A stretch of 64,000 bases of DNA, taken from an uncultured bacterium (GTDB lineage: Bacteria; Margulisbacteria; Termititenacia; CAZZFK01). The DNA is taken from assembly GCA_964653455.1 (NCBI GenBank), contig CAZZFK010000003.1:60819-124818 (forward strand). Direction: 5' to 3'. The position numbers and the translations under genes are program-made. Positions 2,331-49,835 of this stretch are shown here, in pieces; the stretch's first letter is position 1, and each line of letters opens with the position of its first letter. The notes under the pieces were generated by a model that was not told where the DNA came from, ran no database searches, and saw nothing but the letters and a program-made list of their open reading frames with translations.

Positions 2331-3299
2331 TCACAGTATGAACGAGATGCACAACATCAATATGCCGATGAAAAGAAAGACCTGGAACCGTTCGCTGTAC
2401 ATGGTCGAAACAGTGTTCTTGATCCCTACGCGTTTATAGTATTGCAGTTCCTGTATGATCTCTGAGAGCGGCTCACTGTTCTGGTTAAGCAGATAGACCT
2501 TGGATGTGGCCAGCGGTTGCAGGTTCTCAGGATGGATGCGGCTCACCACAACGGACCCTTTTTTATCTTTCTTGTACCCATGTACCGTACCGTTCTCGTC
2601 CAGCAACGGTATCGGTTGGCCGCCTTCAGTACCTACGCACACGGGCATGATCACTGCGCCTATTTCTGAGGCATCATCTTTTAACCCGTTCAGACCGCCT
2701 TCATGATCTTCCCCGTCGGTGAATATCATGATGACCTTATCCTGCGGGACTTTCGGATCGAAGGTCTCGAGGCATTTGGCGACCGCCGCATGGAGGTTCG
2801 TCCCTGCAGTGTTCTCTCGGGAGCCGACTATGGTCGTCATAAAAAGTTTCAGGGCTTCATAGTCGGTTGTGAGGGGTGTGATGGTCGTGGCCGAACCCGC
2901 GAAGGTCACCAGACTTACCCTGTCTCCCTGCAGTGTATCCAGCAGGCGGTTCACTTCCATGATGGTCTTTTCAAGGCGGGACGGATAGATATCCGGCGTG
3001 TACATACTGCTCGAAGTATCGATCGCAATGACAAGGTCCAGCCCTTTTTGCATGAACGGTTCCTGTTTGATACCCCATTGTGGGCGGAGCAGGGCGAGAA
3101 CGATGAATACCAGTCCCCCTACGAACAGAAGGCGGGCATTTCTTTTCGTCCCGGGTCCTCGTATCACTTTTTTGAGCGTATCCGCGCTCCCCAGCTTTTT
3201 TAGTCCTATATCGGAGGTGCGGTCAAAATGACCGAACGCGAACCACACCCCGGCAGGGATAAGGAGCAGCCACCATAATTTCAGTAACGCGATATTCAT
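2331..3299 (-). CDS. batB: vWA domain protein, BatB-like
   Basis: ALLRPQWG, MIDAS motif DTSSSM, FTDGEDHEG, N- and C-terminal TM segments. Confidence 0.85.
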   Translation of the reverse strand: MNIALLKLWWLLLIPAGVWFAFGHFDRTSDIGLKKLGSADTLKKVIRGPGTKRNARLLFVGGLVFIVLALLRPQWGIKQEPFMQKGLDLVIAIDTSSSMYTPDIYPSRLEKTIMEVNRLLDTLQGDRVSLVTFAGSATTITPLTTDYEALKLFMTTIVGSRENTAGTNLHAAVAKCLETFDPKVPQDKVIMIFTDGEDHEGGLNGLKDDASEIGAVIMPVCVGTEGGQPIPLLDENGTVHGYKKDKKGSVVVSRIHPENLQPLATSKVYLLNQNSEPLSEIIQELQYYKRVGIKNTVSTMYSERFQVFLFIGILMLCISFIL

Positions 3300-3315
3300 C
3301 GTATATTCCCTATGT

Positions 3316-4362
3316 TCATGGCCATATCTTTAGCACGGTGTTCGACAATACGAATTCCAGAATGAGCAGGCAAAGTCCGAACAGAACGAATCCGAAATAT
3401 CTTTCATCAAAACGGGTATGTACCACGTCCTTGATCTTGATCTTCTCCAGTGCGTTGATCTTTTTGAAGACTTCTCGCAGTTCTCCTGTATTCTTGGCCA
3501 GGAAATATTCACCTTGGGTCAGCCCTGCTATCTGTATCAATGCGTCCTGGTTGAGCTTTGTTAGCGCAAGGGAACCGTCCGGATTACGGGCGTACAGTTT
3601 CCCCTGACCGGGCACATATACCGGCATAGGGGCCCCCTCAGGTGAGCCGATACCGATAGTGTATATCTTCACGTTCATGTCGTTGGCCAGTTTTGCCGCA
3701 TCGATCGGATCGATCTCACCGCTGTTGCTTTCTCCGTCCGTGATCAGGATGATGACCTTGCTCTTTGCTTCCGACCTGCGTAAGCGGTTAAGGGCCGTGA
3801 CCTCTGCAAGTCCGATAGCCGTTGCTTCACCGGCCATACCGACCTTTATCCTTGAAAGCAGGTCCAGCAGTATGTCGTGGTCCAGTGTCAGCGGGCATTG
3901 GGTAAAACTGGTGCTGCCGAATACCACAAGGCCGAGGCGATCGTTCTTGCGGTCATAAATGAACTCTTTTACGACGTTCTTTGCCGCGGTCATGCGGTCA
4001 GGCTTCAGGTCCTCCGCCCACATGCTGCCAGAGGTATCCAGTGCGATCATCATATCGATACCTTCTTTATACAGAGGATCTGCACGTCCCGGGACCTGGG
4101 GCCGGGCCAGCGCTAATATAAGGAAGGCGAGCGCGAGAAGTTTGAGACCATCCAATATATAGTCTATCCATTGGAGATCCTGTTGTGATGAACGGGAGAT
4201 GGTATCGACGTTCGAATGTCCGAATACAGCACGCTGTTTTCGGTAATGAAGAAATTTCCATAAGCCGTGTCCGGGAAGTTTTGAACTTTTGCCGTACCAG
4301 ATATACCAGAGCACAGGCAGTATCAACAGGAAAAATAAAGCAAGAGGGTTCGCGAATTTCAT
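3316..4362 (-). CDS. batA: vWA domain protein, BatA-like
   Basis: MKFANP start, ALARPQ, DTSGSM, TAIG, ITDGESN, KIYTIGIG. Confidence 0.88.
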   Translation of the reverse strand: MKFANPLALFFLLILPVLWYIWYGKSSKLPGHGLWKFLHYRKQRAVFGHSNVDTISRSSQQDLQWIDYILDGLKLLALAFLILALARPQVPGRADPLYKEGIDMMIALDTSGSMWAEDLKPDRMTAAKNVVKEFIYDRKNDRLGLVVFGSTSFTQCPLTLDHDILLDLLSRIKVGMAGEATAIGLAEVTALNRLRRSEAKSKVIILITDGESNSGEIDPIDAAKLANDMNVKIYTIGIGSPEGAPMPVYVPGQGKLYARNPDGSLALTKLNQDALIQIAGLTQGEYFLAKNTGELREVFKKINALEKIKIKDVVHTRFDERYFGFVLFGLCLLILEFVLSNTVLKIWP

Positions 4363-5291
4363 GGTACGCGCTCCTCTTGCGGGTCAGTGATGGTCTGCGC
4401 AGGCTTCATTCGTTCGATAATATCCTGAGCATGTCTGATATATTCACGATCGTCATTAGCCTCGGGCCGGTATTTGGCGAATTTAACAAGATCTGCTTCG
4501 TTCAAAAGTCCGATCAAATGATCTTTGACGGGAATGTCTTTTATGTCGATCATCTTTGCTATTTCGCTCGTCGTGCGGTCCATGAGGTCCCGTCCTGAAA
4601 GGTCTAAAAAGAACTTCTTCAGTTTTTCCGAGGTCTCGATATAGAACATTTTGACATCGGCCTGTGCCGGAGGGACCAGTGTGCTGAAGTAGTCATGATA
4701 TTCCTGCCATATCTCGAGCGGTGTGCGGTGCTTTTTTATAAAGGGCAGTGAAAGAGCTCCGGTATCAAGCTGGTCTTTTAAATAGTGATAGAGAAAGAGG
4801 TTCCCAGCGATAAAGAAGAACAGTGTTGCGAGAATAAATATGTCCGAATAGGGGTTGATCGGTCTTTTCATCGGACGCGCATTGGGCGTTCCTGTGATCA
4901 GCGAGGATATGGTACAGGATAATGAACGGACGACATTTTCTTGGATATTGAACGTGGGGAACGTGATCGCCCCGGTCTGGAATGGTGTGATCCTGGTCAT
5001 ATATTTGAGCTTATTACCGTGAACCGTCACGGATGGCGTTATGATCTCAAATGAGTTGTTGTTTGAATTCCCGCCCGAAGTAAAAGAAAGCATAGGTATC
5101 GATAATGATGTTGTGCGGTCATAGGGTACAGTGACCTTGTACGTGATCATATCCCCGATATAGATCTTTTTTGGGGTCAGATGGGGTTGATATGCTATGT
5201 CCGCAAGACAGGAGAAAGCATGAAGCATAAAGCAGATGACATATAGCAGCATGTGAAGCACGTTCAGTGTACGTATCGTTTTCATGCTCAA
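4359..5291 (-). CDS. Bat-cluster membrane protein (BatD-like N-terminus, DUF4381-like C-terminus)
   Basis: Signal peptide, IGDxITY motif, central TM helix, C-terminal ADLVKFAKYRP typical of this operon position. Confidence 0.6.
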   Translation of the reverse strand: MSMKTIRTLNVLHMLLYVICFMLHAFSCLADIAYQPHLTPKKIYIGDMITYKVTVPYDRTTSLSIPMLSFTSGGNSNNNSFEIITPSVTVHGNKLKYMTRITPFQTGAITFPTFNIQENVVRSLSCTISSLITGTPNARPMKRPINPYSDIFILATLFFFIAGNLFLYHYLKDQLDTGALSLPFIKKHRTPLEIWQEYHDYFSTLVPPAQADVKMFYIETSEKLKKFFLDLSGRDLMDRTTSEIAKMIDIKDIPVKDHLIGLLNEADLVKFAKYRPEANDDREYIRHAQDIIERMKPAQTITDPQEERVP

Positions 5292-6169
5292 AACCTCTTG
5301 CGCGATGTGCGGCGTTTAAAAAAGGATATGATCTTCTCAAGATATGGTTCCCCGCAGGTCAGGTGAATGAAATCGCCCGTATTCTTGAGAAAAAGCTCTT
5401 TGAGCGACAGGAAGTTCTTTTGCGCTGCTTCTGCATATGCTTTGCGGAAGTTCGTATCTCTCGTATCGATGATGCGAGAAGCATCATGCTCCAGGTCCTT
5501 GATACGGAGATAGCCGAAGGAGGGTATGGTCTTTTCGAACGGATCGCCGATCAGGACCGGGATGACATCATGTTTTCGTGCCGTGATCTCGAAGGTCTTT
5601 TTATAATCGTCCGCGATGAAGTCCGAGAGTATAAAGACCACAGAACGGCGCTTGGTGATCAGGTTCAGATGTTCTAACGCGGCTTTGATATTTGTCTTTT
5701 TGTTAACCGGGGTGAAACTAATGACATCGCGTAGCAAGCGAAGTACATGTTTCCTCCCTTTTTTTGCAGGAATGAACTTCTCCACTTTGTCCGTAAAAAG
5801 CATCAGACCTGCCCGGTCATTGTTCTTGAGCGCTGTCAGGGAGAGCAGTGCCGCTATCTTTTGTGTCAGTTCTTTCTTGGTCCCGTCTTTTGTCCCCAGG
5901 TCCTGTGAGGCGCTCATATCCACCAGGATATATATATGAAGTTCACGCTCTTCCCGGAATATCTTCACGTGCGGGGTGCCGGTGCGCGCGGTCACGTTCC
6001 AGTCGATGAACTTGATATCATCGCCGACCTGATAGGGACGTACTTCCTGGAACTCTATCCCAAGGCCCCGGAACGCGGATTGATATTCTCCGGAGACCGT
6101 TGAATTGATGATACGGTTGGTCTGTATTTCGAGCTTTTTTACTTGGGCAAGTATATCTTTTGTGATCAT
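5288..6169 (-). CDS. DUF58 family protein
   Basis: GEYQSAFRGLGIEFQEVRPYQVGDDIKFIDWNVTAR, FREERE, DMSAS. Start moved to MITKDI. Confidence 0.92.
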   Translation of the reverse strand: MITKDILAQVKKLEIQTNRIINSTVSGEYQSAFRGLGIEFQEVRPYQVGDDIKFIDWNVTARTGTPHVKIFREERELHIYILVDMSASQDLGTKDGTKKELTQKIAALLSLTALKNNDRAGLMLFTDKVEKFIPAKKGRKHVLRLLRDVISFTPVNKKTNIKAALEHLNLITKRRSVVFILSDFIADDYKKTFEITARKHDVIPVLIGDPFEKTIPSFGYLRIKDLEHDASRIIDTRDTNFRKAYAEAAQKNFLSLKELFLKNTGDFIHLTCGEPYLEKIISFFKRRTSRKRF

Positions 6170-6177
6170 GGTGTTCT

Positions 6178-6283
6178 TGACCCCTCCCACCGCTTTCAGC
6201 GGTTCCCCCTCCCCAATGCCCTTACTAGCTTGCCCCGAGCAATGCCGAGGGGTATTGGGGAGGGGGCTAGGGGGTGAGGTTTG
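6178..6283. repeat. GC-rich REP-like palindromic element (family member 1)
   Basis: Stem CCCCCTCCCCAATGCCC...GGGTATTGGGGAGGGGG. Its left end GACCCCTCCCACC (6179-6191) is identical to 20653-20665. The inner 22-mer matches the 25.4 kb element at 18/22 positions. Confidence 0.75.
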
Positions 6284-7279
6284 TTACGGTACCTCGATCG
6301 TATCCAGTATCTTCTGGATAACGTCTTCAGAGGTCATATTTTCTGCTTCCGCTTCATAACTGATGATGACACGATGGCGGAGCACGTCCATGACGATCGA
6401 TTTCACATCATCTGGAGAGACGAAACCGCGGCCCTGCAGGAAGGCATGGGCCTTAGCGGCTTTGGTCAAATAGATGGAAGCGCGAGGAGAAGCTCCATAG
6501 GTGATGAGATTCTTGATGTTCAATTTATATTCTTCAGGTTCTCTGGTCGCAAGGACGATATCGAGGATATAGTCTTTGATCTTTTCATCGACATAAATAT
6601 CGTCAATGACACCTTGAACACGAATGATATCGGCAGGAGTTATGACCTTTTTGAGGTCCGCCGAATCAATGGACCGCTGAATGTCGATGATCTGTCGCTC
6701 TTCTTTACGTGAAGGATAGGATATCAAGAGCTTTAGCATGAAGCGGTCCACCTGCGCTTCGGGCAGAGGGTAGGTTCCTTCCTGTTCGATAGGGTTCTGG
6801 GTCGCAAGTACCAGGAACGGCTCGTTCAATCGATATGTCTCTTCACCCAGTGTCACCTGTTTTTCCTGCATGGCTTCAAGGAGTGCGCTCTGGACCTTGG
6901 CGGGTGCGCGATTGATCTCGTCGGCAAGTATTATATTATGGAAGACAGGCCCTTTTTTTATGGAAAAGTTCGTTGTCGCGGGGTTATAGATCATGGTCCC
7001 GATGATATCGGCAGGAAGCAAGTCGGGAGTGAACTGGATGCGTTTGAAAGAGCAATCGATGATCTGCGAAAGCGTTCTGATGATAAGCGTTTTGGCGAGA
7101 CCGGGGACCCCTTCGAGCAATATGTGACCTTTGCAGAAGAGCCCGATGAGTATCTTCTCGATGATGGTACGTTGCCCGACGATCACCTTGTTGAATTCTT
7201 TCATGACGTCAGCGATGAAGGCGGATTCTTTTTGTATGCGTGCGTTCAATTCCTGAATAGAGATGTCGTTAGTGCTCAT
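6284..7279 (-). CDS. moxR: MoxR family AAA+ ATPase
   Basis: LLEGVPGLAKT, RIQFTPDLLPAD, LADEINRAPAKVQSALLEAMQE, ATQNPIEQEGTYPLPEAQVDRF. Confidence 0.95.
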   Translation of the reverse strand: MSTNDISIQELNARIQKESAFIADVMKEFNKVIVGQRTIIEKILIGLFCKGHILLEGVPGLAKTLIIRTLSQIIDCSFKRIQFTPDLLPADIIGTMIYNPATTNFSIKKGPVFHNIILADEINRAPAKVQSALLEAMQEKQVTLGEETYRLNEPFLVLATQNPIEQEGTYPLPEAQVDRFMLKLLISYPSRKEERQIIDIQRSIDSADLKKVITPADIIRVQGVIDDIYVDEKIKDYILDIVLATREPEEYKLNIKNLITYGASPRASIYLTKAAKAHAFLQGRGFVSPDDVKSIVMDVLRHRVIISYEAEAENMTSEDVIQKILDTIEVP

Positions 7280-7566: not shown

Positions 7567-9765
7567 ATGGAGATATTGTCGAAGTTCGGTAAGTTCCTCG
7601 CTGATGTTTTTGTCGGTAGCGGTCTTCAGCTTCATCTCAATCCGGGTCTGCTTGTTATCGTAACGTTCGGGTGTTCTGTTCTGGCCCTGCTGTTCGCTCT
7701 CTATCTCGGGCTTATGGTCATGCATCAGGATGAGGGTTCGGATAAAATGAAAAAAATATCCTCATCGATCCGTACCGGTGCTAAAGCATATTTGAAGCGT
7801 CAGTATTCGGTCATTGCGGTCTTCTTTCTGGTCGTTTTCTTCATCCTGTTGGCTATGGCATTAAAGGGCTATCTGACGATATTCGTACCGTTCGCCTTTT
7901 TGACCGGCGGTTTTTTCTCCGGTCTTTCCGGTTTCATCGGTATGACCATGGCCACATGCTCAAATGCCAGGACCGCTTCCGGGGCCATGAAAAGCCTTAA
8001 CTCCGGCCTGCGCATAGCGTTCTCGGCCGGTGCGGTCATGGGCCTTGTTGTTGTCGGTCTCGGGCTTTTTGATCTCAGTGTATGGTACGCGATATTGAAC
8101 AAGGTCTATGAGCATCTTCCGGTCGCAGAGAAGATCAAGAACATCACCGGAGCAATGCTGACCTTCGGCATGGGCGCATCCTCGATGGCGCTTTTTGCCC
8201 GTCTTGGCGGCGGTATCTTCACGAAAGCTGCTGACGTTGGAGCCGATCTTGTCGGTAAAGTTGAGGCTGGTATTCCTGAAGATGACCCGCGTAATCCTGC
8301 TGTTATCGCGGACAACGTCGGTGATAACGTCGGTGACGTTGCCGGCATGGGTGCAGATCTGTATGAATCTTATGTCGGTTCTATCGTAGCGACCATGGCT
8401 CTCGGTGCCGCGGCTTTTGCTCAGTACGGGATGTCTTTCCAGAGCGTTACGGTGCCCCTGGCCATGGCTGCTGTCGGAGTCATCGCTTCTATTCTTGGTA
8501 CGTTCTTTGTACGTTCCGGTGAAAAAGCGGATCAGGGCGTGTTATTGTGGGCTCTTCGCAAGGGAACGTTCATGACAGCGTTCCTCGTGCTTGTATTCTC
8601 CTATCTGGTGATCAAGTTCACTCTGGGCATGGCCTTTATCGGGATATACGGTTCGGTACTTTCCGGGCTGCTTGCGGGTATAATCATCGGTCTGGTGACG
8701 GAATATTTCACTTCGGATAAATATGCTCCGACCCAGCATCTTGCCGCTTCTGCGACAACAGGTCCTGCAACGGTCATCATCGCAGGCATCTCTCTGGGCA
8801 TGAGTTCCACGGTCGTTCCGGTCATCACCGTTTGTGTAGCCACTGTTGCCGCATATGTGTTCGCCGGCGGTCTGGCGAACTATGCGTTGGGATTGTACGG
8901 TGTCGGTATCTCTGCGGTCGGCATGCTTTCAACGCTCGGTATCACGTTGGCGACAGATGCCTATGGTCCGGTCGCTGATAATGCCGGCGGAATAGCACAG
9001 ATGAGCAAATTGCCTCCGAAGGTGCGTGAACGTACGGATGCTCTTGATTCCCTCGGGAATACGACCGCTGCGACCGGTAAAGGGTTCGCTATCGGTTCAG
9101 CTGCTTTGACGGCAATGGCGTTGATAGCTGCTTATCAGGAAGAGATCCAGTTCGCGGCGCACCGCATGGGTTTGCATGATTTCACCATGAACATCAGTAT
9201 CATGAACTTGCCGGTACTTATCGGTCTGTTCATCGGCGCGATGATGCCGTTCGTTTTCTCCGGTCTTACCATGGCCGCGGTCGGTCGTGCCGCTCAGCAG
9301 ATCGTTGTTGAGGTGCGCCGTCAATTCAAACAGATCAAAGGATTGATGCAGGGCAAAGCTGAGGCCGATTACGCACGTTGCGTGGCGATCTCGACCGGTG
9401 CTGCTCAAAAGGAAATGGTATTCCCGTCGCTCCTGGCGATCATCGTTCCTATCCTTGTGGGATACTTGCTCGGTCCGAGCGCTGTTGTCGGCCTGCTCGG
9501 CGGGGCAATGGCCAGCGGTTTCGTGCTCGCGGTATTCATGGCCAATGCGGGCGGTGCCTGGGATAACGCCAAGAAGTATATTGAGTCCGGTAAGTTCGGC
9601 GGAAAAGGTTCAGATGCTCATAAAGCAGCTGTGACCGGTGATACGGTCGGTGATCCTTTCAAAGATACGTCCGGTCCTTCACTGAACATCCTGATCAAGC
9701 TTATGTCCATGGTCTCCATTGTTTTCGCTGCGTTCCTTGCTGCGAACTCATTGAAGCTGTTCTAA
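7567..9765 (+). CDS. hppA: Membrane-integral K+-dependent pyrophosphatase with Na+,H+-PPase signature
   Basis: [26 protein letters not shown] (K+-dependent Ala), [20 protein letters not shown], plus [13 protein letters not shown] and TFGMGAS. Confidence 0.95.
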
Positions 9766-9792
9766 GCATAGACAGGGTAATAGTCAGATATA

Positions 9793-9829
9793 AAGCACCC
9801 CACGGCAGATAGCTGTGGGGTGTTTTTTT
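9793..9829 (+). terminator. Intrinsic terminator after hppA
   Basis: CACCCCACGGC-AGATA-GCTGTGGGGTG stem followed by a T run. Confidence 0.85.
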
Positions 9830-9838
9830 ATATTTGTT

Positions 9839-9867
9839 TTTACTTGCTTAATGATATTTGCTATACT
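9839..9867 (+). promoter_or_regulatory. Promoter upstream of riboswitch copy 1
   Basis: TTTACT-17 nt-TATACT with extended -10 TG. Confidence 0.55.
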
Positions 9868-9891: not shown

Positions 9892-9939
9892 GGGTCCAAT
9901 TGCACTAAGCGATTGGAGGCATTTGATGGTCGGGCCGCC
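9892..9939 (+). ncRNA. Riboswitch aptamer, nhaA-I-like (Li+/Na+ class), copy 1
   Basis: GGG-[TCCAATTGC ACTAA GCGATTGGA hairpin]-GGC-ATTTG-ATGGTCGGGCC-GCC. It lies between a promoter and a terminator, and a covarying second copy is at 16502-16547. The class assignment is from my recollection of the nhaA-I consensus, not a search. Confidence 0.75.
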
Positions 9940-9967
9940 ATCTGAACACATTCAGATGGTTTTTTTT
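9938..9967 (+). terminator. Riboswitch expression-platform terminator
   Basis: CCATCTGAA-CACA-TTCAGATGG perfect 9-bp stem + T8. The first two C residues belong to the aptamer 3' end. Confidence 0.85.
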
Positions 9968-10009
9968 GTTCAAAAAGCCACCTGAATACTATTTCAAGGA
10001 GGCTTGATC

Positions 10010-10156
10010 ATGGACGAAAATAACATTCCAGTAAAAACACAAAAAGAAGAAGAACGATCCAGGCGCGGTTTTGATTATAATTGGTTCGCGGTCCTGGGCG
10101 TTGTTTTATATATTATTTTGATCATTGTGTTGCAGCGTGTTTTCCATATCATATAG
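10010..10156 (+). CDS. Small single-TM membrane protein, 48 aa (unannotated)
   Basis: AAGGAGG RBS, then MDENNIPVKTQKEEERSRRGFDYNWFAVLGVVLYIILIIVLQRVFHII*. Its stop overlaps the AGGAG RBS of the next gene. Confidence 0.7.
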   Translation: MDENNIPVKTQKEEERSRRGFDYNWFAVLGVVLYIILIIVLQRVFHII

Positions 10157-10165
10157 GAGCGGCTG

Positions 10166-12481
10166 TTGCTCAATAGTATGAAACTGCCAATTTTTTTAAA
10201 AAATGCGCTCAATACGGTACGTGCATTATACAGATATATATTTGATCTCACGGAGGTTTCTGCTCAGCATCGAGGGCATAATGATCCCGGACGTCTCCTG
10301 ATCGTTTCGAACCGTCTGCCGGTAACTGTTTCTATCAGTAGCAGCAACGTTGCGTATGAACCGAGCTCCGGAGGTCTGGCGACCGGGCTTGCTTCATATA
10401 TCAAAAATAGTGAACACAAGAACAGTTCCCTCTGGATAGGGTGGCCCGGCAGCACGATATGCGAAGAGAAAAAACTCCAGGTCCAGACCGATCTCTTTCA
10501 TGACCATGCCTGTGTTCCTGTATATCTTGATGAGACTGCAATGGATCAGTTCTATCATGGGTTCTGCAATAAAACGCTCTGGCCCCTTTTCCATTATTTT
10601 CAGGTATTCACTGAATTCCGTGATGATTTTTGGAAGAATTATGAGGAGGTCAATCAACGTTTCTGTGACGCGGTACTGGAACATGCCGGACCGAACGATA
10701 CGGTATGGGTGCATGACTATCATCTGATGCTTTTACCAAAAATGCTGCGGGAAAAAATCCCCAAATTGAAAATAGTGTTCTTTCTGCACATCCCGTTCCC
10801 GACCTATGAGATATTCCGGTTATTGCCCAAGAACTGGCGCGAATCGATCCTGTCCGGTCTTTTGGGTGCGGATGTTATTGGGTTCCATACGCATAGCGAT
10901 GTTCAGTATTTCCTGAGCTCGGCGCTGCGTATCCTTGGTATTGAACATACAACAGGACAATTGCGCTATGACGGACGTCTTATAAAGGTCGACGCGTTCC
11001 CTATGGGGATAGATTTTCAGAAATTCAACTCTGCGGCCAGCTCCTCCGCGGTCACAGCTGAAAAGGATACGATCCGTAATAGCTTTGGGAACAGAAAGCT
11101 CGTTCTTTCTCTTGACAGGCTGGATTATACAAAGGGGATCAAACAACGGCTGCTCGGGTTTGAACGGTTCATTGATGAGCATCCTGAGTGGGTCGGTAAC
11201 GTGTCACTGATGATGGTCATTATCCCGTCGCGTATCGCGGTCGGCTCCTATCAGGACATGAAAAAACAGCTTGATGAAGAGATCGGGCGTATAAACGGCC
11301 GGTTCACGAAACTTGATTGGACCCCGATCATATACCGATATAAGAGCATTCCTTTTACGGAGCTTGTCGCGCTGTACGCCGCGGCAGATGTCGCATTGGT
11401 CACACCCTTGAGGGACGGGATGAACCTTATAGCCAAGGAGTATCTGGCCAGCAAGGCTGATGCGACCGGAGTCCTGATCTTAAGCGAGATGGCGGGGGCT
11501 GCGAAAGAATTAACTGAAGCGATCATCATCAATCCGAACAACACTGAAGAAATGTCGGCCGCTATCCATACAGCCCTGAATATGCCCGTTGAGGAGCAGC
11601 GACGTCGCAATGAACACTTGCGCTCACGGCTTGAGCGCTATGATGTGGCGCGTTGGGCAAAGAACATACTGGATAAGGTGAATGAGGTCTTTGATATACG
11701 TATACGGTCCACTTCTGCGGTATTTTTGGGCAATGAACAGCGTGAATTCGTCAAACGAGCGCTCCGCATGTCCGTCAAAAAGCTCATACTGCTCGACCAT
11801 GACGGCACGTTGGTCCCTTTTATGGATGATCCGATACTTGCAGAACCAGGACCGAATGTTATCTCGCTGCTCTCAAAGTTATGCAACGTGACGGGAACAG
11901 ATGTGGTCATTATCAGTGGACGTGACAAGGCGACCCTTGAATCGTGGTATGGAGGATCGCCCGTGCAGCTGGTAGCCGAGCATGGTGCGTCTGTCAGGAA
12001 TAAAAATGGTGTTTGGCGAACGAAAAAACACCTGCATAGCGGATGGAAACAGGACCTTCGCCCGATATTCGAGAAATATGCCGATGCACTCCCGGGGTCA
12101 TTTGTGGAGGAAAAAGAACATTCACTTGTCTGGCATTATCGTATGGCGGACCTGGAACATGGGGCCATGAAGAAGAAAGAGCTGATAGATGATCTGGTAC
12201 ACTTTACCGCGAACGTTGATCTGAGCGTGCTGCAGGGGAACAAGATCGTTGAGATACGCAATAGTACAGTGAACAAAGGCTCGACGGTAGGTGAGTTAGT
12301 GAGCAAGAAAGCGTATGACCTTTGTATCGCGATCGGGGATGATGTCACCGATGAAGACATGTTCAGGGCCGTTCCCAAAGGCTCCATCACAATAAAGGTC
12401 GGCACGGGAGATACGGCCGCTGCTTATTATACAAAAAGCTATCGTGATGTTATTGACCTGATAAAGAATTTGACGGATTGA
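10166..12481 (+). CDS. otsAB: Bifunctional trehalose-6-phosphate synthase/phosphatase (GT20 + HAD-IIB)
   Basis: LLIVSNRLP, SSGGLA, WVHDYHL, FFLHIPFP, DRLDYTKGI, TPLRDGMNLIAKEY, LSEMAGAA, then DHDGTL and IGDDVTDEDMF. Confidence 0.95.
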   Translation: MLNSMKLPIFLKNALNTVRALYRYIFDLTEVSAQHRGHNDPGRLLIVSNRLPVTVSISSSNVAYEPSSGGLATGLASYIKNSEHKNSSLWIGWPGSTICEEKKLQVQTDLFHDHACVPVYLDETAMDQFYHGFCNKTLWPLFHYFQVFTEFRDDFWKNYEEVNQRFCDAVLEHAGPNDTVWVHDYHLMLLPKMLREKIPKLKIVFFLHIPFPTYEIFRLLPKNWRESILSGLLGADVIGFHTHSDVQYFLSSALRILGIEHTTGQLRYDGRLIKVDAFPMGIDFQKFNSAASSSAVTAEKDTIRNSFGNRKLVLSLDRLDYTKGIKQRLLGFERFIDEHPEWVGNVSLMMVIIPSRIAVGSYQDMKKQLDEEIGRINGRFTKLDWTPIIYRYKSIPFTELVALYAAADVALVTPLRDGMNLIAKEYLASKADATGVLILSEMAGAAKELTEAIIINPNNTEEMSAAIHTALNMPVEEQRRRNEHLRSRLERYDVARWAKNILDKVNEVFDIRIRSTSAVFLGNEQREFVKRALRMSVKKLILLDHDGTLVPFMDDPILAEPGPNVISLLSKLCNVTGTDVVIISGRDKATLESWYGGSPVQLVAEHGASVRNKNGVWRTKKHLHSGWKQDLRPIFEKYADALPGSFVEEKEHSLVWHYRMADLEHGAMKKKELIDDLVHFTANVDLSVLQGNKIVEIRNSTVNKGSTVGELVSKKAYDLCIAIGDDVTDEDMFRAVPKGSITIKVGTGDTAAAYYTKSYRDVIDLIKNLTD

Positions 12482-12509
12482 CAAGCGGTCATCTGAGGGA
12501 GCGTGAGAT

Positions 12510-12629
12510 ATGACATTAGCAGGATGGATATTTATGATCTCATACTGGACACTGATCTTTGCTGTTTTGATCTTTTGTTTCGGATATATCTTTGTTCAAG
12601 AGCGAGCGAAATACAAGAAAAAGCGATAA
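12510..12629 (+). CDS. Small membrane protein, 39 aa (unannotated)
   Basis: GAGGGAG RBS, then MTLAGWIFMISYWTLIFAVLIFCFGYIFVQERAKYKKKR*: a hydrophobic helix with a basic tail. Confidence 0.7.
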   Translation: MTLAGWIFMISYWTLIFAVLIFCFGYIFVQERAKYKKKR

Positions 12630-12724
12630 TCGCCCGGGCATAAGATATGTATTCCGTATCCTTTCAAAAACAACCCCTACGGCTTATAATGAGTTCGGCA
12701 AGATAGACATTGGGGGTATATGCT

Positions 12725-14188
12725 ATGGTCTCCATTCAACGAAAGTCCTTAAGGATGAGCCCCGACCCCAAAAGGGTCGTTGCGCGCCATTATATGACGT
12801 ACGACAGTGCGTGTGTCAGAACGGTCGCCGAGCAGGTCCTGAATATGTCTGCCGATGAAGTGAGCAAAATGTTCAGGGATATTTTGGAGCACTATTCTTC
12901 CCGTCATCGTAGTATCACGAAGGTGCTGAAATACCATTTTGAAAGAGCCATGAGCGACGGCAATACCGGACTTTCTCCGGATGCTTTCAGCGAACAGCAG
13001 CAACTGGTGTTGGGGGCCTATTTCACGATGGAATACTCTATCGAATCCGCGGCCTTTTTCAATCCTTCCATCGTTGAAGCTCCGGACCAGAGCGGACTCT
13101 CTGCCGGTGAGAAAAAGGTCATAGTAAGTTTTCGGGCTGTCGGGGAGGGCCATATTTCTTCCCTAGTGTTCAGAGAAGGTATTATCAACAGAAGAAATGA
13201 CCTGAAAATAAACCCCAATCGCAACAATATCGTAGATATGCCCGAAAAGATAACCAGGTTCATCTATGAAAAGGAAAAATTCGTTCAAAAGATGAAGGAG
13301 ATGGCACTGCCTGAAAAGATCTGTCTACTTGCCGAAAAAAAACTGAAGGATACCTTTGTGTATGGAAAGCTGCGTGATTGGCTGGAGGCCTGTTCTCTCG
13401 ATCCCGCATTGGATGAAAAGGAAAAAGAAGTGTTGCCTCAGGTGCTGTGGCTGGCAAAGTCGCACTACGAAGTATCTTTTTCTTTAGATACATCCATATC
13501 GGAACGGGTCCTTTTCCCGATCTCATACCGGGAAACGAACGGGATCGAAGATGTTCGTTTTGTGCGTTTTATTGAAGATACCGGAGAGCCCGTCTACTAT
13601 GGTACCTACACGGCATATAATGGCAGTTCGATACTCCCCAAACTTTTGAGAACAAAAGATTTTTACACGTTCACGATATTGCCGATACATGGTCCGCACG
13701 TACAGAACAAAGGTTTAGCACTGTTCCCCAGAAAGATAAACGGTAAATATGTCATGTTGTCGCGCCTGGACGGCATCAATAATTACCTTATGTATTCCGA
13801 TGATATCTATGTCTGGCCGGAAAAAGCGGTCTTGCTCCAAAGACCCGAATTTCCCTGGGAGTTCATGAAGGTCGGCAACTGCGGCTCTCCGCTGGAGACA
13901 CCTCAGGGCTGGCTTTTGATCACACATGGAGTAGGCCCAATGCGCCAGTATTGTCTGGGTGCGACGCTGCTAGACCTGAAAGACCCCTCAAGAACGATCG
14001 GACGGTTAAAACAACCGCTATTGATCCCGAATTCCGAAGAAAGAGAAGGGTATGTCCCGAACGTGGTCTATTCCTGCGGGAGCATGATACACGGAGATGA
14101 TCTGATCATTCCCTACGGGATGGCGGATCAATGCTCCACCTATGCGGTCGTTCCGCTCAAAAAGCTTCTACAAGAATTGACCGCGTAA
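12725..14188 (+). CDS. GH130-like glycosidase/phosphorylase (PH1107-related, five-bladed propeller)
   Basis: EYSIESAAFFNPSIV, YYGTYTAYNG, NKGLALFPRKING, VGNCGSP, THGVGP, REGYVPNVVYSCG. A separate promoter-like TTTCAA-17 nt-TATAAT lies upstream. Confidence 0.8.
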   Translation: MVSIQRKSLRMSPDPKRVVARHYMTYDSACVRTVAEQVLNMSADEVSKMFRDILEHYSSRHRSITKVLKYHFERAMSDGNTGLSPDAFSEQQQLVLGAYFTMEYSIESAAFFNPSIVEAPDQSGLSAGEKKVIVSFRAVGEGHISSLVFREGIINRRNDLKINPNRNNIVDMPEKITRFIYEKEKFVQKMKEMALPEKICLLAEKKLKDTFVYGKLRDWLEACSLDPALDEKEKEVLPQVLWLAKSHYEVSFSLDTSISERVLFPISYRETNGIEDVRFVRFIEDTGEPVYYGTYTAYNGSSILPKLLRTKDFYTFTILPIHGPHVQNKGLALFPRKINGKYVMLSRLDGINNYLMYSDDIYVWPEKAVLLQRPEFPWEFMKVGNCGSPLETPQGWLLITHGVGPMRQYCLGATLLDLKDPSRTIGRLKQPLLIPNSEEREGYVPNVVYSCGSMIHGDDLIIPYGMADQCSTYAVVPLKKLLQELTA

Positions 14189-14193
14189 CGTCA

Positions 14194-16446
14194 TTATTTC
14201 TTTGAAAGATCGTACAATAGTTCTTCATGTGCGATCAATACGGTCATGTGCGCAATAGAGAAGGCCAGCGTGCTTTCAGCCCCCTGGTTTCGGCTGACCC
14301 TGTCTTTCTCCAGTCCATCATTACAGCCTTTCGTTTCAAAGTCGTATAACGGCATGCGTAAAAAATTCTCACCCAGGAACCAGTTGTAGGCCAGGTACAT
14401 TTTTTCCAGAAAAGAGCGGTCTTTGGTCAGCGAGTAGGCCGTGTGATACAGCAGCACCATGCCCATAGCATTGACCGGCTGTTGCGCCGCAAGCGCGGGT
14501 TTCCCGTCTTTCGGATACCAGCCGTTACTGCCAATGACAGAAAGATAGTCGTTCTTGAACTTCGTTCTTTCCAGAAAAGCGAGCGCTTCCAGCGCAATGG
14601 TCTTATACTCTTCATTACGCAATACTTTGTAGGAATGCAGTAAGGCCAGGGGGATCATGCCGTTGGCATAGGCGATGACAGATTCGAACCAGTGCCAATC
14701 TTCGGTGCGTTCGCTCTTATATGCGCTCACGAGGAGCTGTGCCTGTTTTTTCATGATCTGTGCGCAGCGTTCGTTGTCCGGATATCTGTACAGGAAAAAA
14801 GCCAGCCCAATGATGCAGAACGCAATGGCCCGGATGCTTTTGATGTTGTCTATGTTCGGAAGGGCTTTTTCGAACATCTCCCGGCCTATCTGGAACAACA
14901 CTTCATTGGGCGGATAATGTATGAGATAGCCCAGGGCCCAAACGGACCTCCCGAATGAATCCTCTGTCCCTTTTTCATCAAGGAATTTCCGGTCAAAGCT
15001 CAGGAAATTCCGGAACGTGCCGTCCTCGTTCTGCATGTACATGAGGAATTTCAGATATATGCCTATCAGCCGGAATGCTTCGGGGTCCTCTTCCTGCCGG
15101 TAGGCCATGATCGTTGTGATGAGCGCCCGCGCGTTATCGTCCGTGCAATAACCTTCCTTGAGATTTGGGATGCTATAGCGCGCGTGCTGTACGATGCCGG
15201 TATCATCGGTCAGCCGGATGATATGTTCCAGGCTGAACTCAGGCATACCTGTGGGCGTGAAAGGAAGGGGACTGTCGATGTTCTTGACCTGCTTGGACTG
15301 CTGCTTTAAACAGCGATTGAACTCAGAAAGATATTCTTTTCCGATCACAGACCATGTCGTTCTTCTGCCATAGGCATAGGCAAGCCTGCGGGTATGTTCA
15401 AGTTGCCTCGGATTATCCAGCAGCTGCATGAGAATACCAGATAATTGCTGGGAATTATTAAAATCGAACAGGTATCCTCGGTCATCGGCCAGGACCTCCT
15501 CGGCATGCCAGTAGGGCGTGGAAATGACCGCGGCGCCGGAACCGATGGCATATGAGAGCGTCCCGCTGGTGATCTGGCGTTTGTTCAGATAGGGCGTGAT
15601 ATAGATGTCCGCAGCGGAAAGATACAGGACCAATTCTTTCTCGCTCACGAATTCATCATGAAAATGGACATGATCTTCCAGCTCCAGTTTCTCCACAAGC
15701 CTGATGAGATAGTTGCGGTATTCCTCCCCGGAATATTTAAGGACATGCGGATGGGTCTTGCCGAGGATGATATAGGTAAGGTTCGGATGTTTTTTTATGA
15801 GGTCCGGCAGCGCACGTATCACGGTCTCTATCCCCTTATTACGGTTCAAGAGGCCGAAGGTCAGGAGCGTTTTTTTATCCTCCAGATTGAGCGCCTGTTT
15901 GCAGCGCAGCCCATGCTTATAATTGATGTCCGGGACACCATGTTGTATGAGCTTGATCTTTTCTGCGGGTACACCGTAGGTGTTTGTCAAGAATTGGATC
16001 GCTTTATTGCTCATGACGATAAGTTTCTCCGCTTTTGCGGCTATCTCCTGAATGATTATCTTTTCATTGAATGACGGAGCTTCAAGGACCGTATGCAGTG
16101 TGGCATAGACCGGGATCTTTAGATTATGGATCAGCGAGAGGAGATATATACCGCTTTCTCCGCCATAGATACCATATTCGTGTTGAATGAGGCAGATATC
16201 CGCTCCGCTATAGTTTATATAGCCCGCCGCTTCGATATAGTCGCGTTGATGTTCCTGGCGTATGACACATTCCACGATCTCGGGATATGAATACCTGTCC
16301 ATCGGAGATTGCATGGCGGTAACGAACACATCTGCCTTAGGCAAATGCTGTTTGACGAGAGCTTTGAGCAGATTTTGAGAGAAGGTCGCGATACCGCATT
16401 CTCGGGGAGGGTAGGTACAGATAAGGGCTATTTTGAGCTTTTTCAT
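14194..16446 (-). CDS. GT4 glycosyltransferase fused to a C-terminal (alpha/alpha)6-like domain
   Basis: TYPPRECGIATFS, IQHEYGIYGG, FGLLNRNKGIE, YITPYLN..QITSGTL, STPYWHAEE, then TDDTGIVQHA, YCTDDNARAL, NQGAESTL. Start MKKLKIA follows an AAGGA RBS. Confidence 0.85.
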   Translation of the reverse strand: MKKLKIALICTYPPRECGIATFSQNLLKALVKQHLPKADVFVTAMQSPMDRYSYPEIVECVIRQEHQRDYIEAAGYINYSGADICLIQHEYGIYGGESGIYLLSLIHNLKIPVYATLHTVLEAPSFNEKIIIQEIAAKAEKLIVMSNKAIQFLTNTYGVPAEKIKLIQHGVPDINYKHGLRCKQALNLEDKKTLLTFGLLNRNKGIETVIRALPDLIKKHPNLTYIILGKTHPHVLKYSGEEYRNYLIRLVEKLELEDHVHFHDEFVSEKELVLYLSAADIYITPYLNKRQITSGTLSYAIGSGAAVISTPYWHAEEVLADDRGYLFDFNNSQQLSGILMQLLDNPRQLEHTRRLAYAYGRRTTWSVIGKEYLSEFNRCLKQQSKQVKNIDSPLPFTPTGMPEFSLEHIIRLTDDTGIVQHARYSIPNLKEGYCTDDNARALITTIMAYRQEEDPEAFRLIGIYLKFLMYMQNEDGTFRNFLSFDRKFLDEKGTEDSFGRSVWALGYLIHYPPNEVLFQIGREMFEKALPNIDNIKSIRAIAFCIIGLAFFLYRYPDNERCAQIMKKQAQLLVSAYKSERTEDWHWFESVIAYANGMIPLALLHSYKVLRNEEYKTIALEALAFLERTKFKNDYLSVIGSNGWYPKDGKPALAAQQPVNAMGMVLLYHTAYSLTKDRSFLEKMYLAYNWFLGENFLRMPLYDFETKGCNDGLEKDRVSRNQGAESTLAFSIAHMTVLIAHEELLYDLSKK

Positions 16447-16485
16447 GGCCTGGTATCCTTTTTTGATGATCATTAAGAACCATCT

Positions 16486-16510
16486 AAAAAAAACGGCACA
16501 TGGTGGCCCG
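16486..16510 (-). terminator. Putative expression-platform terminator of riboswitch copy 2
   Basis: Minus strand CGGGCCAC-CAT-GTGCCG bulged hairpin + T8, built partly from aptamer nucleotides. Confidence 0.55.
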
Positions 16511-16547
16511 ACCATCTGCAAACCTCTAGTACCGGAATACTAGACCC
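16502..16547 (-). ncRNA. Riboswitch aptamer, nhaA-I-like (Li+/Na+ class), copy 2
   Basis: GGG-[TCTAGTA TTCCGG TACTAGA hairpin]-GGT-TTGCAG-ATGGTCGGGCC-ACC. Same architecture as copy 1 with a compensatory GGC/GCC to GGT/ACC change. Located in the 5' UTR of the GT4 gene. Confidence 0.75.
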
Positions 16548-16622
16548 TTGAAAACGTTAATGTATTGATATCAATATATCATACTGAAGGGAAATGAACA
16601 GCTTTTATTTGATCGAAAGTGC

Positions 16623-42381: not shown

Positions 42382-44874
42382 CTATTTTAACCTTCGTGTG
42401 AGGTACTTATTGTATTCCGATGGCGTTGTCAGGGTCCTTATCAGGAACATGTAATATGCGATCTGTTTGCTCCCCCCAGGATACCGCTTCATCTGGTCCT
42501 CGAAAGTATTTGCCAACTCGCTCCGAAAACGACCATCCTTAAAATAGACGCGAGGTATATAGATGGTCGATGGATATGTGTCAGTATCCTTCAGCAGAAG
42601 ATCGTTCGGTACGGCAAGCCGGACAATATTCGCTGATTCCGTGAAGGTCGTTTCGACCAGTTTAGCGATATCCTCCGTCGATATCTCTTTTTTGCCGATA
42701 GCTGCTTTTATCTTTGGGACCAGGGCCTTGATGTCTTTTAATTCAGATACTGTGGTCAGGATATCCCTGTGACTGATAAGTTTACTGAGCGTATCACCCT
42801 TCTGCGCCTTTTCATTCAGGGTCAATGCTTTGAGCACTTTATTTGCCAGTTCGCCCCGGAACTCCTTGTTCTTATCATTGGTGGTTGTGGTCTTCGTTGA
42901 TGATACCTGCGTTACGGTACTGACCGAGCTCTTCGGCCTCTTAGTCGAAGGAACGGGCCCCGCTTCGGTATGCCCATTACCCGTACCCTGACGAACAGCT
43001 TCTGCAGAACGAACGATGTTCTTCCCTGTACTGCCGTTCAATATATGATCTTTGACCGGAGGCAGAAATAGTTCGCGTATCGTTCTTGCGGTCGGAACAT
43101 TGAGATACATGACCAGTGCCGAAAGAACGCCAATGCCCGCAACGGCTATCCCTGCGGGAAGGGACGATAGCATGAACAGTAGTCCGGCGCTGAAAAGCGC
43201 TATCGGCAGGTATTTGCGTATGCGGTCCTGATTGCGTTTTTTACGCTCAAAACGCTCCCGGTCCTTGATATATTCCATCTCGTTTTTCTGTATGTCGGCG
43301 GAAATGATCTTTATGACCTTGAGCAATTCCTGGTCCTTCTCCGCGTCTTTGTGTCTGTCCAGGTCACCTTCGATCGCCTTCACGAGCTGGTAATAGCGTT
43401 CTATACGCTGATCTTCGCGTCTATAGAATGAAAGCTTTTTCTTTATGGCCGACATATACCGTTTATCCAGGAAATAGAACACGTCGCCTTCGCGATGGAA
43501 AGTGATGAACGTAGGGACATACTCCGCAATATCATCTATCTTGGATATGGCACTTTCATTGATCTTGCGCAATTCAATACGCATATCCCGTATGGTCATT
43601 CCCTCCCCGCGCAAACCTTTGAATTCATCGTACGCGCCCTTGAACTCGTACTTTTCGTTCCTGCTGTTCTCTGTGATCTTCTTCGATAACCCTTCGAAGA
43701 ATTTCACGATATGCTCCTTCTGCCTTTGTTTTTCGATCAAGGTAAGTTCACGTATAAGTCCGGAAAGGACCTGCACTCCTGCAGAGATGATCTGTAAGCG
43801 ATGGTCTTCCAGGACCGTAGCAGGGCTGAACGGTCTTAAGAATTTTTCCAGGATCCCTTTGAGCTCGGTGCTGCCGGTCAGTATCTTGTCTGCAGGATCA
43901 TTCTCGTTCTTTTGAGGACCCAGATATGCATCTATCTGTTCCAGAAAATTCTGCCATTCATGTTTCTCGCTGATGTTCCTGATCATCGGGAGCGCGTACT
44001 CTTCCAGCGTACGTACATATGCTTTGAGCAGGATCAAAGCCACGGGTTCTTCCTTGAATTGCCCGTCATCATTAACTGCAGGCACATGATGCACAATATG
44101 GTATCCGGGAGATATCTCTGTGATCATCCCGTTGCGGGCCAGATAAGAGATATACGAACGTTCAAAATAGGGTACAGGTACTGGGTCATATTGGTGCGCA
44201 TCATCGATGATGAAGCCTTTTTGAACGATATTCCTTAGGACGCGCTCCACACTGTACGGATCAGCTAGATGTTCTTTTTGTTTTGTATCCTGTATAGCTT
44301 TGAGTAGTTGAGGACCGTGCGCCGAGGACATCGCCTTGAGTACCACCGTCTTGCAATAGTGAACGAACAATGTAGCTATCCCTGCATCCTGTGCATAGGA
44401 GCGAAGCCCTTGTATATATCCGCCAATGTTCCCCTTGTGGTCAACATCAGGCACAGGTCGGAGCAATACGGGGACGAATTTGATGATCGTTCTGTTATCC
44501 TTGTTCTTGCCTGTTGTGATATAACCATCAATATGCAGATATGGAAGTTTTGAAGCCGCATCACGGCGCAACATAGCACGCACTATCTCATTGATCGCGC
44601 GCACCGGATGTGGCGCGTCGTTGTTGATCTTTATATCGTACAGGTGCTTTTCATAGGAATAATACAGGTCCTTGGGTATCTGATCAGCTTGATACCGAAG
44701 GCGGAGCTCCCTCATATGATCATCAAGCTTAGTGATGAACGTATACTGTTCAGAAGTCGCATGATACAGCTTTTCTTCAATATATAAATCTTCAGGAAAG
44801 GTCGACAGGTCAACGGACAATAGTTCTGCCGAACTATCCGGGCTACCGATGACCTTGTGAACAAGTTGTTTCAT
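42382..44874 (-). CDS. Hypothetical 830-aa protein with a TM hairpin
   Basis: Long ORF with no recognised motif. Two hydrophobic segments near aa 555-595, then a Ser/Thr-rich linker. Confidence 0.7.
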   Translation of the reverse strand: MKQLVHKVIGSPDSSAELLSVDLSTFPEDLYIEEKLYHATSEQYTFITKLDDHMRELRLRYQADQIPKDLYYSYEKHLYDIKINNDAPHPVRAINEIVRAMLRRDAASKLPYLHIDGYITTGKNKDNRTIIKFVPVLLRPVPDVDHKGNIGGYIQGLRSYAQDAGIATLFVHYCKTVVLKAMSSAHGPQLLKAIQDTKQKEHLADPYSVERVLRNIVQKGFIIDDAHQYDPVPVPYFERSYISYLARNGMITEISPGYHIVHHVPAVNDDGQFKEEPVALILLKAYVRTLEEYALPMIRNISEKHEWQNFLEQIDAYLGPQKNENDPADKILTGSTELKGILEKFLRPFSPATVLEDHRLQIISAGVQVLSGLIRELTLIEKQRQKEHIVKFFEGLSKKITENSRNEKYEFKGAYDEFKGLRGEGMTIRDMRIELRKINESAISKIDDIAEYVPTFITFHREGDVFYFLDKRYMSAIKKKLSFYRREDQRIERYYQLVKAIEGDLDRHKDAEKDQELLKVIKIISADIQKNEMEYIKDRERFERKKRNQDRIRKYLPIALFSAGLLFMLSSLPAGIAVAGIGVLSALVMYLNVPTARTIRELFLPPVKDHILNGSTGKNIVRSAEAVRQGTGNGHTEAGPVPSTKRPKSSVSTVTQVSSTKTTTTNDKNKEFRGELANKVLKALTLNEKAQKGDTLSKLISHRDILTTVSELKDIKALVPKIKAAIGKKEISTEDIAKLVETTFTESANIVRLAVPNDLLLKDTDTYPSTIYIPRVYFKDGRFRSELANTFEDQMKRYPGGSKQIAYYMFLIRTLTTPSEYNKYLTRRLK

Positions 44875-49620: not shown

Positions 49621-49835
49621 TATGATCACCCTTTCATGTCGTTTTTTTATCATCAATACATCTGCTGACACTTATTTGTCGAAAGTACAGATATATAAGG
49701 TTCAAATATCTGGGGGGTGTTCTATAGCATAAAACACTTCTTTTTGAGCATGGTCCTCAATTGTTTTAGTGCATCACAGGAACAACTGCACATATGATTT
49801 ACATTTTTTCTGCTTACATCTATAGTGGTGGTCTC

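Follow-up and report, generated by a model that had tools for sequence, protein, structure and literature searches.

Analysis of a 64,000-nucleotide (nt) stretch of DNA from an uncultured Margulisbacteria bacterium (contig CAZZFK010000003.1, positions 60,819 to 124,818; the whole stretch is called the window here) with all 4227 families of Rfam 15 revealed two matches only, both to the nhaA-I riboswitch motif (RF03057). The two RNAs lie on opposite strands, each in a leader on the coding strand and 5' of the downstream gene. A sequence-only reading of this DNA had placed two nhaA-I-type aptamers here, 6.6 kb apart on opposite strands, the one ahead of a small membrane protein gene and otsAB and the other ahead of a glycosyltransferase fusion; both the positions and the downstream genes were confirmed. 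The locus comprises the following features, in which P2 is the second stem of the aptamer:

9839..9867, + strand: promoter-like site of switch 1, TTTACT-17-TATACT with an extended -10 (TGCTATACT at 9859-9867), ending 24 nt before the aptamer
9892-9943, + strand: nhaA-I aptamer copy 1 (RF03057, 48.9 bits, whole-window E = 1.3e-6)
9937-9960 (stem) and 9960-9967 (T8), + strand: predicted intrinsic terminator of switch 1, with the P2 3' arm inside its stem and thus excluding P2
10010..10156, + strand: small open reading frame (ORF) of 48 amino acids (aa) with a single transmembrane (TM) segment and a strong Shine-Dalgarno sequence (AAGGAGG) 7 nt upstream
10166..12481, + strand, probable ATG at 10178: otsAB, bifunctional trehalose-6-phosphate synthase/phosphatase (Pfam GT20 7e-158, Trehalose_PPase 9e-50)
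12710..14188, + strand: long GH130-like protein of 477-492 aa, its C-terminal half similar to beta-1,2-mannoside phosphorylases
14194..16446, - strand: 750-aa fusion of an N-terminal GT4 glycosyltransferase and a C-terminal (alpha/alpha)-toroid (AlphaFold2 pLDDT 83.5), called the GT4 fusion below
16486..16519, - strand: putative non-canonical expression platform of switch 2, made up of P2 plus three pairs (16519-16496), CG and U8 (16493-16486)
16547-16498, - strand: nhaA-I aptamer copy 2 (RF03057, 34.0 bits, full-length match)
16573..16581, - strand: extended -10-like element of switch 2 (TGATATATT), ending 25 nt before aptamer 2

Copy 1 matches the model over its full length (1-55/55) and passes the curated gathering score of 37 bits. 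For copy 2, E is 1.9e-5 in a local scan and 0.0049 in the search of the whole window with all families. These covariance-model scores bear out the assignment to nhaA-I (the Li+-I / Na+-II riboswitches) made in the sequence-only reading; the DUF1646 (Na+-I) model gave no match at E ≤ 10 around either copy. Copy 1 is laid out as GGGU, a 9-bp P1 stem, AGG and a P2 of GAUGGU[CGGGCC]GCCAUC, and copy 2 as GGGU, an 8-bp P1, AGG and a P2 of AUGGU[CGGGCC]ACCAU, with a complete core in which every conserved nucleotide is there. The two P1 hairpins are unrelated in sequence and each is paired throughout, as had been noticed earlier. The 3' end of copy 1 lies 66 nt from the small ORF and that of copy 2 51 nt from the ATG of the GT4 fusion. 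The window contains six matches to the pattern TGNTATAYT, where 2.7 would be expected by chance, and two of these matches sit 24-25 nt 5' of the aptamers on the correct strand. Judged by these features, both RNAs are genuine nhaA-I riboswitch aptamers.

A pattern scan of metagenome contigs provided at least 120 stretches, from which 121 related aptamers were compared; all counts for these relatives, here and below, are among the matches listed. P1 covariation is plentiful, with 90 distinct P1 arms in 105 relatives. The same 105 RNAs do not support a further proposal, that GGC...GCC in copy 1 and GGT...ACC in copy 2 represent a compensatory change: the RNAs with G on the 3' side of the loop have, after AGG, A in 42 cases, U in 36, G in 14 and C in 10, and the three RNAs that have A 3' of the loop carry U, A and C after AGG. 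The G-to-A change in copy 2 merely makes the closing U.G wobble of P2 a U-A pair.

The switch 1 terminator is a 10-bp hairpin of -14.9 kcal/mol, and the terminator fold beats the best fold in which P2 is enforced by 7.6 kcal/mol. The same design, with the terminator preferred over the aptamer, is found in the experimentally validated Na+-II RNA of D. propionicus (17.7 kcal/mol; template sequence taken from Supplementary Table II of White et al. 2022, Sci Rep 12:19145, PMC9646797) and in the related RNAs L028a (7.5 kcal/mol) and L138 (15.2 kcal/mol), and 70 of the 121 metagenomic relatives carry a competing terminator of this type. Copy 1 is therefore, as judged by folding, a predicted transcriptional switch with canonical ON geometry. 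For the ligand, the direction of regulation in vivo and the role in salt stress, we infer the following. At low cytoplasmic cation, the leader would adopt the more stable terminator through the P2 3' arm, and transcription would stop at T8. When the cation rises, the ligand-bound aptamer would keep P2, the terminator would be blocked, and read-through into the 48-aa membrane ORF and otsAB would allow more of the compatible solute trehalose to be made. The monovalent cation sensed at switch 1 would most likely be Na+, possibly also Li+ or NH4+.

Switch 2 is built differently. The U8 tract of copy 2 begins 6 nt past P2, and the sole stable hairpin ahead of it is the extended P2 itself, which has eight pairs with one mismatch (-10.4 kcal/mol) and ends 2 nt short of U8. 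Suboptimal folding of the copy 2 leader yielded P2 variants only. In all 70 terminator-type relatives, the T-run starts 18-37 nt after P2, and a start at +6 is seen only in copy 2; the GT4-linked RNAs L028a, L138 and L058 each have a separate competitor hairpin, unlike copy 2. On the 3' side of U8 stand AGAUGGU and UCUU, which resemble a leftover 3' terminator arm. The platform is identical over 186 nt in the independent assembly SRR10083292 and is thus not an assembly artefact. Two candidate stems were rejected as terminators of copy 2: a CGGGC/GCCG stem that contributes just ~-1.3 kcal/mol, and an ACCAU/AUGGU stem spanning U8 (5 bp, 16-nt loop, poor T-run after it). The earlier reading had described a terminator hairpin with T8 overlapping the 3' end of each aptamer; this geometry stands for copy 1 and falls for copy 2, which has no competitor. 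Its central proposal, that a cytoplasmic cation turns on osmolyte synthesis at two points of one locus, is likewise retained in part, since the lack of a competing terminator in copy 2 means that switching-on is indicated at one point (copy 1) and not two. Switch 2 would be a true aptamer in the leader of the GT4 fusion, its competing hairpin lost or never present, and its output could be ON, OFF or constitutive attenuation.

The product of the 48-aa ORF has no Pfam or NCBIfam match, and a homologue search among 1.84 billion representatives brought up, apart from the query, nothing but spurious alignments with long proteins. Of 64 terminator-type aptamers, 13 are followed by a small single-TM ORF, and the 48-aa ORF is assigned on this pattern to a recurring class of small TM ORFs with no demonstrable family. 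OtsAB passes the NCBIfam equivalog NF011071 (985.4 bits against a cutoff of 634). The GH130-like protein resembles beta-1,2-mannobiose/oligomannan phosphorylases in its C-terminal half (PDB 9fj8, 2.8e-35; 7fip, 3.8e-32); it scores 143-152 bits with the equivalogs NF052550 and NF050092, far below their cutoffs of 450-550, and only the C-terminal ~230 aa align. Its N-terminal ~250 aa gave no match in Pfam or in a PDB sequence search. In the model-based Foldseek comparison, the GT4 domain of the fusion has MshA, PimA, BshA, SPS (sucrose-phosphate synthase) and TreT as neighbours. The C-terminal toroid resembles only the uncharacterised YPO2471, with faint LanC/GH88/C5-epimerase matches, and searches for its function by Pfam, PDB sequence search and Foldseek gave nothing beyond a generic (alpha/alpha)-toroid. 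That the product of the GT4/GH130 pair is an osmolyte, as the sequence-only reading implied, is a hypothesis that found no support here.

The GH130 gene lies between the otsAB unit and the GT4 fusion. A gap of 228 nt, with promoter-like sites inside and no terminator, sets it apart from otsAB, so that it is not clearly in the copy 1 unit, and it forms a tight convergent pair with the GT4 fusion gene in every relative examined (L027, L028, L029 and L031). We therefore assign it to the GT4 fusion and not to otsAB. In the window, the two stop codons are 5 nt apart (14188/14194), and stops 5-18 nt apart with no terminator between are also found between the GT4-fusion unit and GH130 in L027 (7623/7641), L028 (9989/9993) and L031 (6742/6752); the transcripts must therefore overlap or collide in an arrangement that is conserved. 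The long-GH130 family is widespread, and many of its members (P0252, P0257, P0258, P0264, P0265 and others) are fused to a response-regulator receiver domain, ~620 aa in total, which suggests that the activity of these members may be controlled by phosphorylation.

The nearest relatives of the window proteins are 55-77% identical and come from metagenome contigs. Comparison with related loci showed that both placements of the aptamer recur. L028, in which the GT4 fusion is 72%, the GH130-like protein 68% and OtsAB 55% identical to those of the window, has two aptamers as well: the first (L028a; 31.7 bits, sub-threshold) is directly upstream of a GT4 fusion-GH130-GT4 unit, and the second (44.3 bits) precedes a small ORF-mscS-GH15/TREH_N-otsAB unit. 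In L034, an aptamer of 46.5 bits is followed by a small ORF, mscS, GH15, otsAB and SSF. An aptamer before the GT4-fusion gene, as in copy 2, is found in three unrelated contigs (L028, L138/L037 and L058). No aptamer was found in 26 species-representative genomes with more distant GT4-fusion relatives (32-53% identity), and the association between the aptamer and the GT4 fusion is therefore lineage-restricted. The two-switch locus that joins otsAB to the GT4-fusion/GH130 pair is conserved, a modest extension of what was known. Family membership, folds, gene identities and recurrence across genomes are established by this analysis.

Two further arrangements were seen near these operons. In L034 (9038-15294), genes for an F-type ATP synthase, among them an ATPase_gene1 (PF09527) ORF, form an operon beside the mscS-GH15-otsAB-SSF operon. 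OtsAB followed by a DUF5752 and a TreT-like GT4 gene forms a conserved trio in L032 (7267-9154), in L033 (12349-14229) and in three operons of the metagenomic census.

In that census, genes were called by Pfam scan downstream of aptamers of the subgroup meant here, defined by a C/U-G/A lower-P1 pair and transcription-terminator platforms. As first large gene after terminator-type aptamers (54 scanned), GT20/OtsA was found 11 times, MscS four times and pentapeptide proteins three times; DUF1646, CitMHS, Na+/H+ exchanger, Band-7, DctQ and the GT4 fusion appeared twice each, and OAD-beta, P-type ATPase, Rnf/Nqr and DapB once each. Genes 2-4 (69 scanned) included trehalose phosphatase (13), GT20 (6), GT4 (5), GH15/TREH_N (3), DUF5752 (3) and SSF (2). 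In this sample, trehalose synthesis is clearly the leading cargo of the subgroup, and the other genes relate to sodium or osmotic stress. The survey of downstream genes suggested by the earlier reading thus found trehalose genes to be the commonest cargo, and the osmotic-stress interpretation fits a cargo of OtsA/OtsB, MscS, Na+/H+ antiporters, OAD-beta, Rnf/Nqr and SSF.

Several aptamers per locus are common in the subgroup, with a tandem pair in L137 (300-350 and 432-480), a divergent pair in L130 (1461 + and 1088 -) and two on one strand in L154. A GC-rich, terminator-less group of aptamers (L040, L042, L046, L060, L074, L083, L090, L110, L117, L122, L130, L151 and L154) shares the downstream element CCGAUGAA..GAGUUGC....GCAAUGAAGC.UCGGAU, which is apparently another expression platform that likewise would engage the P2 3' arm.

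The link to otsA had been published before. White et al. (PMC9646797) validated nhaA-I as Li+-I and described rare terminator-bearing nhaA-I variants from Deltaproteobacteria, located before hypothetical genes and activated by Na+ (dissociation constant ~1.4 mM), which were named Na+-II and of which the D. propionicus 'hypo' RNA is the one tested member. Their Supplementary Table I of 944 nhaA-I RNAs includes 16 with otsA, five with glycosyl transferase, three with mscS and 171 with hypothetical genes downstream, and their discussion speculates that the otsA-linked RNAs are either Li+ sensors or Na+-sensing variants that control trehalose in osmotic stress. In a companion paper, Na+-I riboswitches are described ahead of genes for osmoprotectants (dapB, ablA, eam) and for Na+ bioenergetics. 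Neither the gene association nor the salt-sensing idea is thus new, and the central inference of the sequence-only reading corresponds to the speculation of White et al. A search of the literature after 2022 found nothing that extends the link between Na+-II and trehalose, and one for GH130 and glycosyltransferases with osmotic stress found nothing relevant.

The window RNAs combine features of Na+-II and Li+-I. They share with the D. propionicus Na+-II RNA the aptamer architecture, the conserved nucleotides, the lower-P1 orientation GGGUC...GAGG and an A-rich leader with a sigma-70-type promoter; copy 1 alone also shares a small 'hypothetical' ORF (48 aa) as first downstream gene and a terminator that takes in the P2 3' arm and is more stable than the aptamer fold. 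They differ from it in P2 (GAUGGU/RCCAUC, against GUUAGC/GCUAAC in D. propionicus), in the U that both copies carry where D. propionicus has C54, and in the lack of a competing terminator in copy 2. With Li+-I they have in common the match to RF03057, which copy 1 passes and copy 2 nearly does, the U at the specificity position, the GGUCGGGCCGCC core that is the same as in validated Li+-I RNAs, and otsA, glycosyl transferase and mscS in the published gene list of the motif. In contrast, validated Li+-I RNAs read GGGUG...CAGGUU, which neither window copy does; they are presumed to work through ribosome binding sites (RBS), whereas copy 1 has a transcription terminator; and they mostly precede nhaA, whereas the cargo in the window is a small ORF with otsAB and the GT4 fusion, with no antiporter. 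Na+-I RNAs resemble the window RNAs as two-hairpin cation aptamers that are ON switches, often with terminators, and share cargo with the relatives found here (DUF1646, OAD, DapB), but they differ in the conserved nucleotides of the lower P1 and P2 loop.

The specificity position C54 of D. propionicus is the base directly 5' of CGGGCC (Rfam model position 42), as mapped through the M4 oligo of Supplementary Table II in White et al.; with C54 changed to U (mutant M4), the RNA is no longer selective for Na+ and responds to Li+, Na+ and NH4+ (PMC9646797). The U in the window copies (at 9930 and 16511) agrees with both the Li+-I RNAs and this broadened mutant; all relatives retrieved here carry U by construction of the search pattern. 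The lower P1 and linker read GGGUCC...GGAGGC in copy 1 and GGGUCU...AGAGGU in copy 2, and this GGGUC/U...G/A-AGG type is that of the Na+-II RNA, whereas GGGUG...C-AGG is found in three validated Li+-I RNAs and in the Rfam consensus. From the lower P1, the terminator platform and the Na+/osmotic cargo, the physiological ligand would most likely be Na+, perhaps with loosened selectivity, although the choice between Na+ and Li+ is beyond what sequence alone can settle.

A number of results weigh against the explanation that is favoured below. Copy 2, at 34.0 bits, is under the Rfam gathering score, and its membership in nhaA-I is accepted from its predicted architecture and conserved position and not from the cutoff. 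The specificity site is GGUCGGGCC in the two copies and AGCCGGGCC in D. propionicus, so that Na+-specific sensing is unsupported by the only known determinant, given that C54U broadened selectivity. A competing fold was sought for copy 2 by folding and was not found (free energy difference of 0), and the stability of its leader is ordinary (z = -0.79). The close GT4-fusion loci L027 (77%), L029/30 (68%) and L031 (59%) have no nhaA-I match even at E ≤ 0.5, which makes RNA control of the GT4 fusion patchy, and the OtsAB relatives L032 and L033 have none at that threshold either. The census is biased by its search pattern, which required Y at position 5 and a fixed P2, and includes some duplicate contigs. 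That the motifs arose by chance or are mere repeats without regulatory function could appeal to the sub-threshold score of copy 2, but both matches are significant in the search of the whole window with all families, the P1 sequences are wholly different yet paired, both RNAs are promoter-proximal on the coding strand, and L028 has both placements while L034, L138/L037 and L058 each have one of them. This covariance-model and synteny evidence effectively refutes a chance origin, which we regard as extremely improbable.

Two other alternatives concern the ligand and the output of copy 2. The switches could sense Li+ as members of the Li+-I class, with trehalose synthesis as a defence against lithium toxicity; White et al. 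(PMC9646797) raised Li+ sensing for otsA-linked RNAs, citing Li+ effects on eukaryotic trehalose metabolism, and U is the base at the specificity position in the two copies and in most nhaA-I / Li+-I RNAs. A U there does not abolish the Na+ response of the M4 mutant, however, the validated Li+-I RNAs are of the RBS type with GGGUG...CAGG and lie mostly before nhaA, unlike copies that combine GGGUC/U...G/A-AGG with, in copy 1, a terminator, and the cargo of the subgroup (MscS, OAD-beta, Rnf/Nqr, SSF, DUF1646, DapB and trehalose genes) is sodium-related or osmotic and not lithium-specific; we consider a lithium switch improbable. Another alternative, to which we give somewhat less than an even chance, is that copy 2 is not an ON switch: P2 and U8 could form a terminator that is stabilised by the ligand, so that the GT4 fusion is repressed at high salt, or the platform could be decayed and act as a constitutive attenuator or relic. 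The extended P2 that ends just before U8 with no competing structure, the separate hairpins and later T-runs (+18 to +37) of all 70 terminator-type relatives, the possible terminator-arm remnant after U8 and the lack of an aptamer in several close GT4-fusion orthologues all speak for such an output. Against it, the aptamer core is complete (34 bits), the sequence is identical in the independent assembly, and the extended -10-like element is kept at the spacing seen in copy 1, which suggests maintenance; it is also conceivable that a docked, ligand-bound aptamer hinders P2 from acting as a terminator, so that copy 2 would still be ON. We favour, as quite probable, the explanation that both RNAs are nhaA-I aptamers of the subgroup with a C/U-G/A lower-P1 pair and transcription-terminator platforms, with switch 1 turned on through its terminator and switch 2 a true aptamer without a competing hairpin.

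A broader scheme is put forward as speculation that we think rather unlikely to hold: the GT4-toroid fusion and the long GH130 protein might constitute an uncharacterised pathway for the synthesis or turnover of a second glycoside or glycan that responds to salt and may be based on mannose; a few lineages would have put this pathway, along with otsAB, under control of the same cation-sensing RNA, and copy 2 might be a compact platform in which P2 doubles as the terminator. The response of such a platform, whether OFF or ON by steric hindrance, would be mechanistically unlike that of all described nhaA-I-type switches. The locus marks this very widespread, uncharacterised enzyme pair as a candidate for a function in salt stress. 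The locus is also a natural test case for the point left open by White et al. 2022, whether otsA-linked nhaA-I RNAs are Li+ or Na+ sensors, and its RNAs, which mix a Na+-II-like lower P1 (with a terminator in copy 1) with a Li+-I-like U, should be informative on how specificity is encoded. Because trehalose synthesis is the commonest cargo of the subgroup in the metagenomic sample, direct sensing of cytoplasmic cations by RNA may widely trigger the synthesis of compatible solutes in anaerobic sediment and digester bacteria. Current concepts are extended and not changed by these results, through two modest additions, the conserved two-switch locus and the atypical platform of copy 2.

The other genes of the window are of a generic housekeeping kind. 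Two large ORFs, 42382-44874 (-) with 830 aa and 47890-49671 (-) with 593 aa, gave nothing in NCBIfam at E ≤ 1e-10. The run of VWA-domain genes at 2331-7279 (-) resembles BatA/BatB, with an adjoining ORF that weakly matches a BchD/ChlD chelatase ATPase model, and looks like ordinary chromosomal context. The gene immediately 5' of switch 1 (7567-9765, +) encodes a membrane pyrophosphatase that passes the sodium-translocating pyrophosphatase equivalog NF001954 (962.6 bits against 894). It has a strong 15-bp terminator of its own at 9792-9826 and is therefore a separate unit, although it is one more gene linked to Na+ in this neighbourhood.

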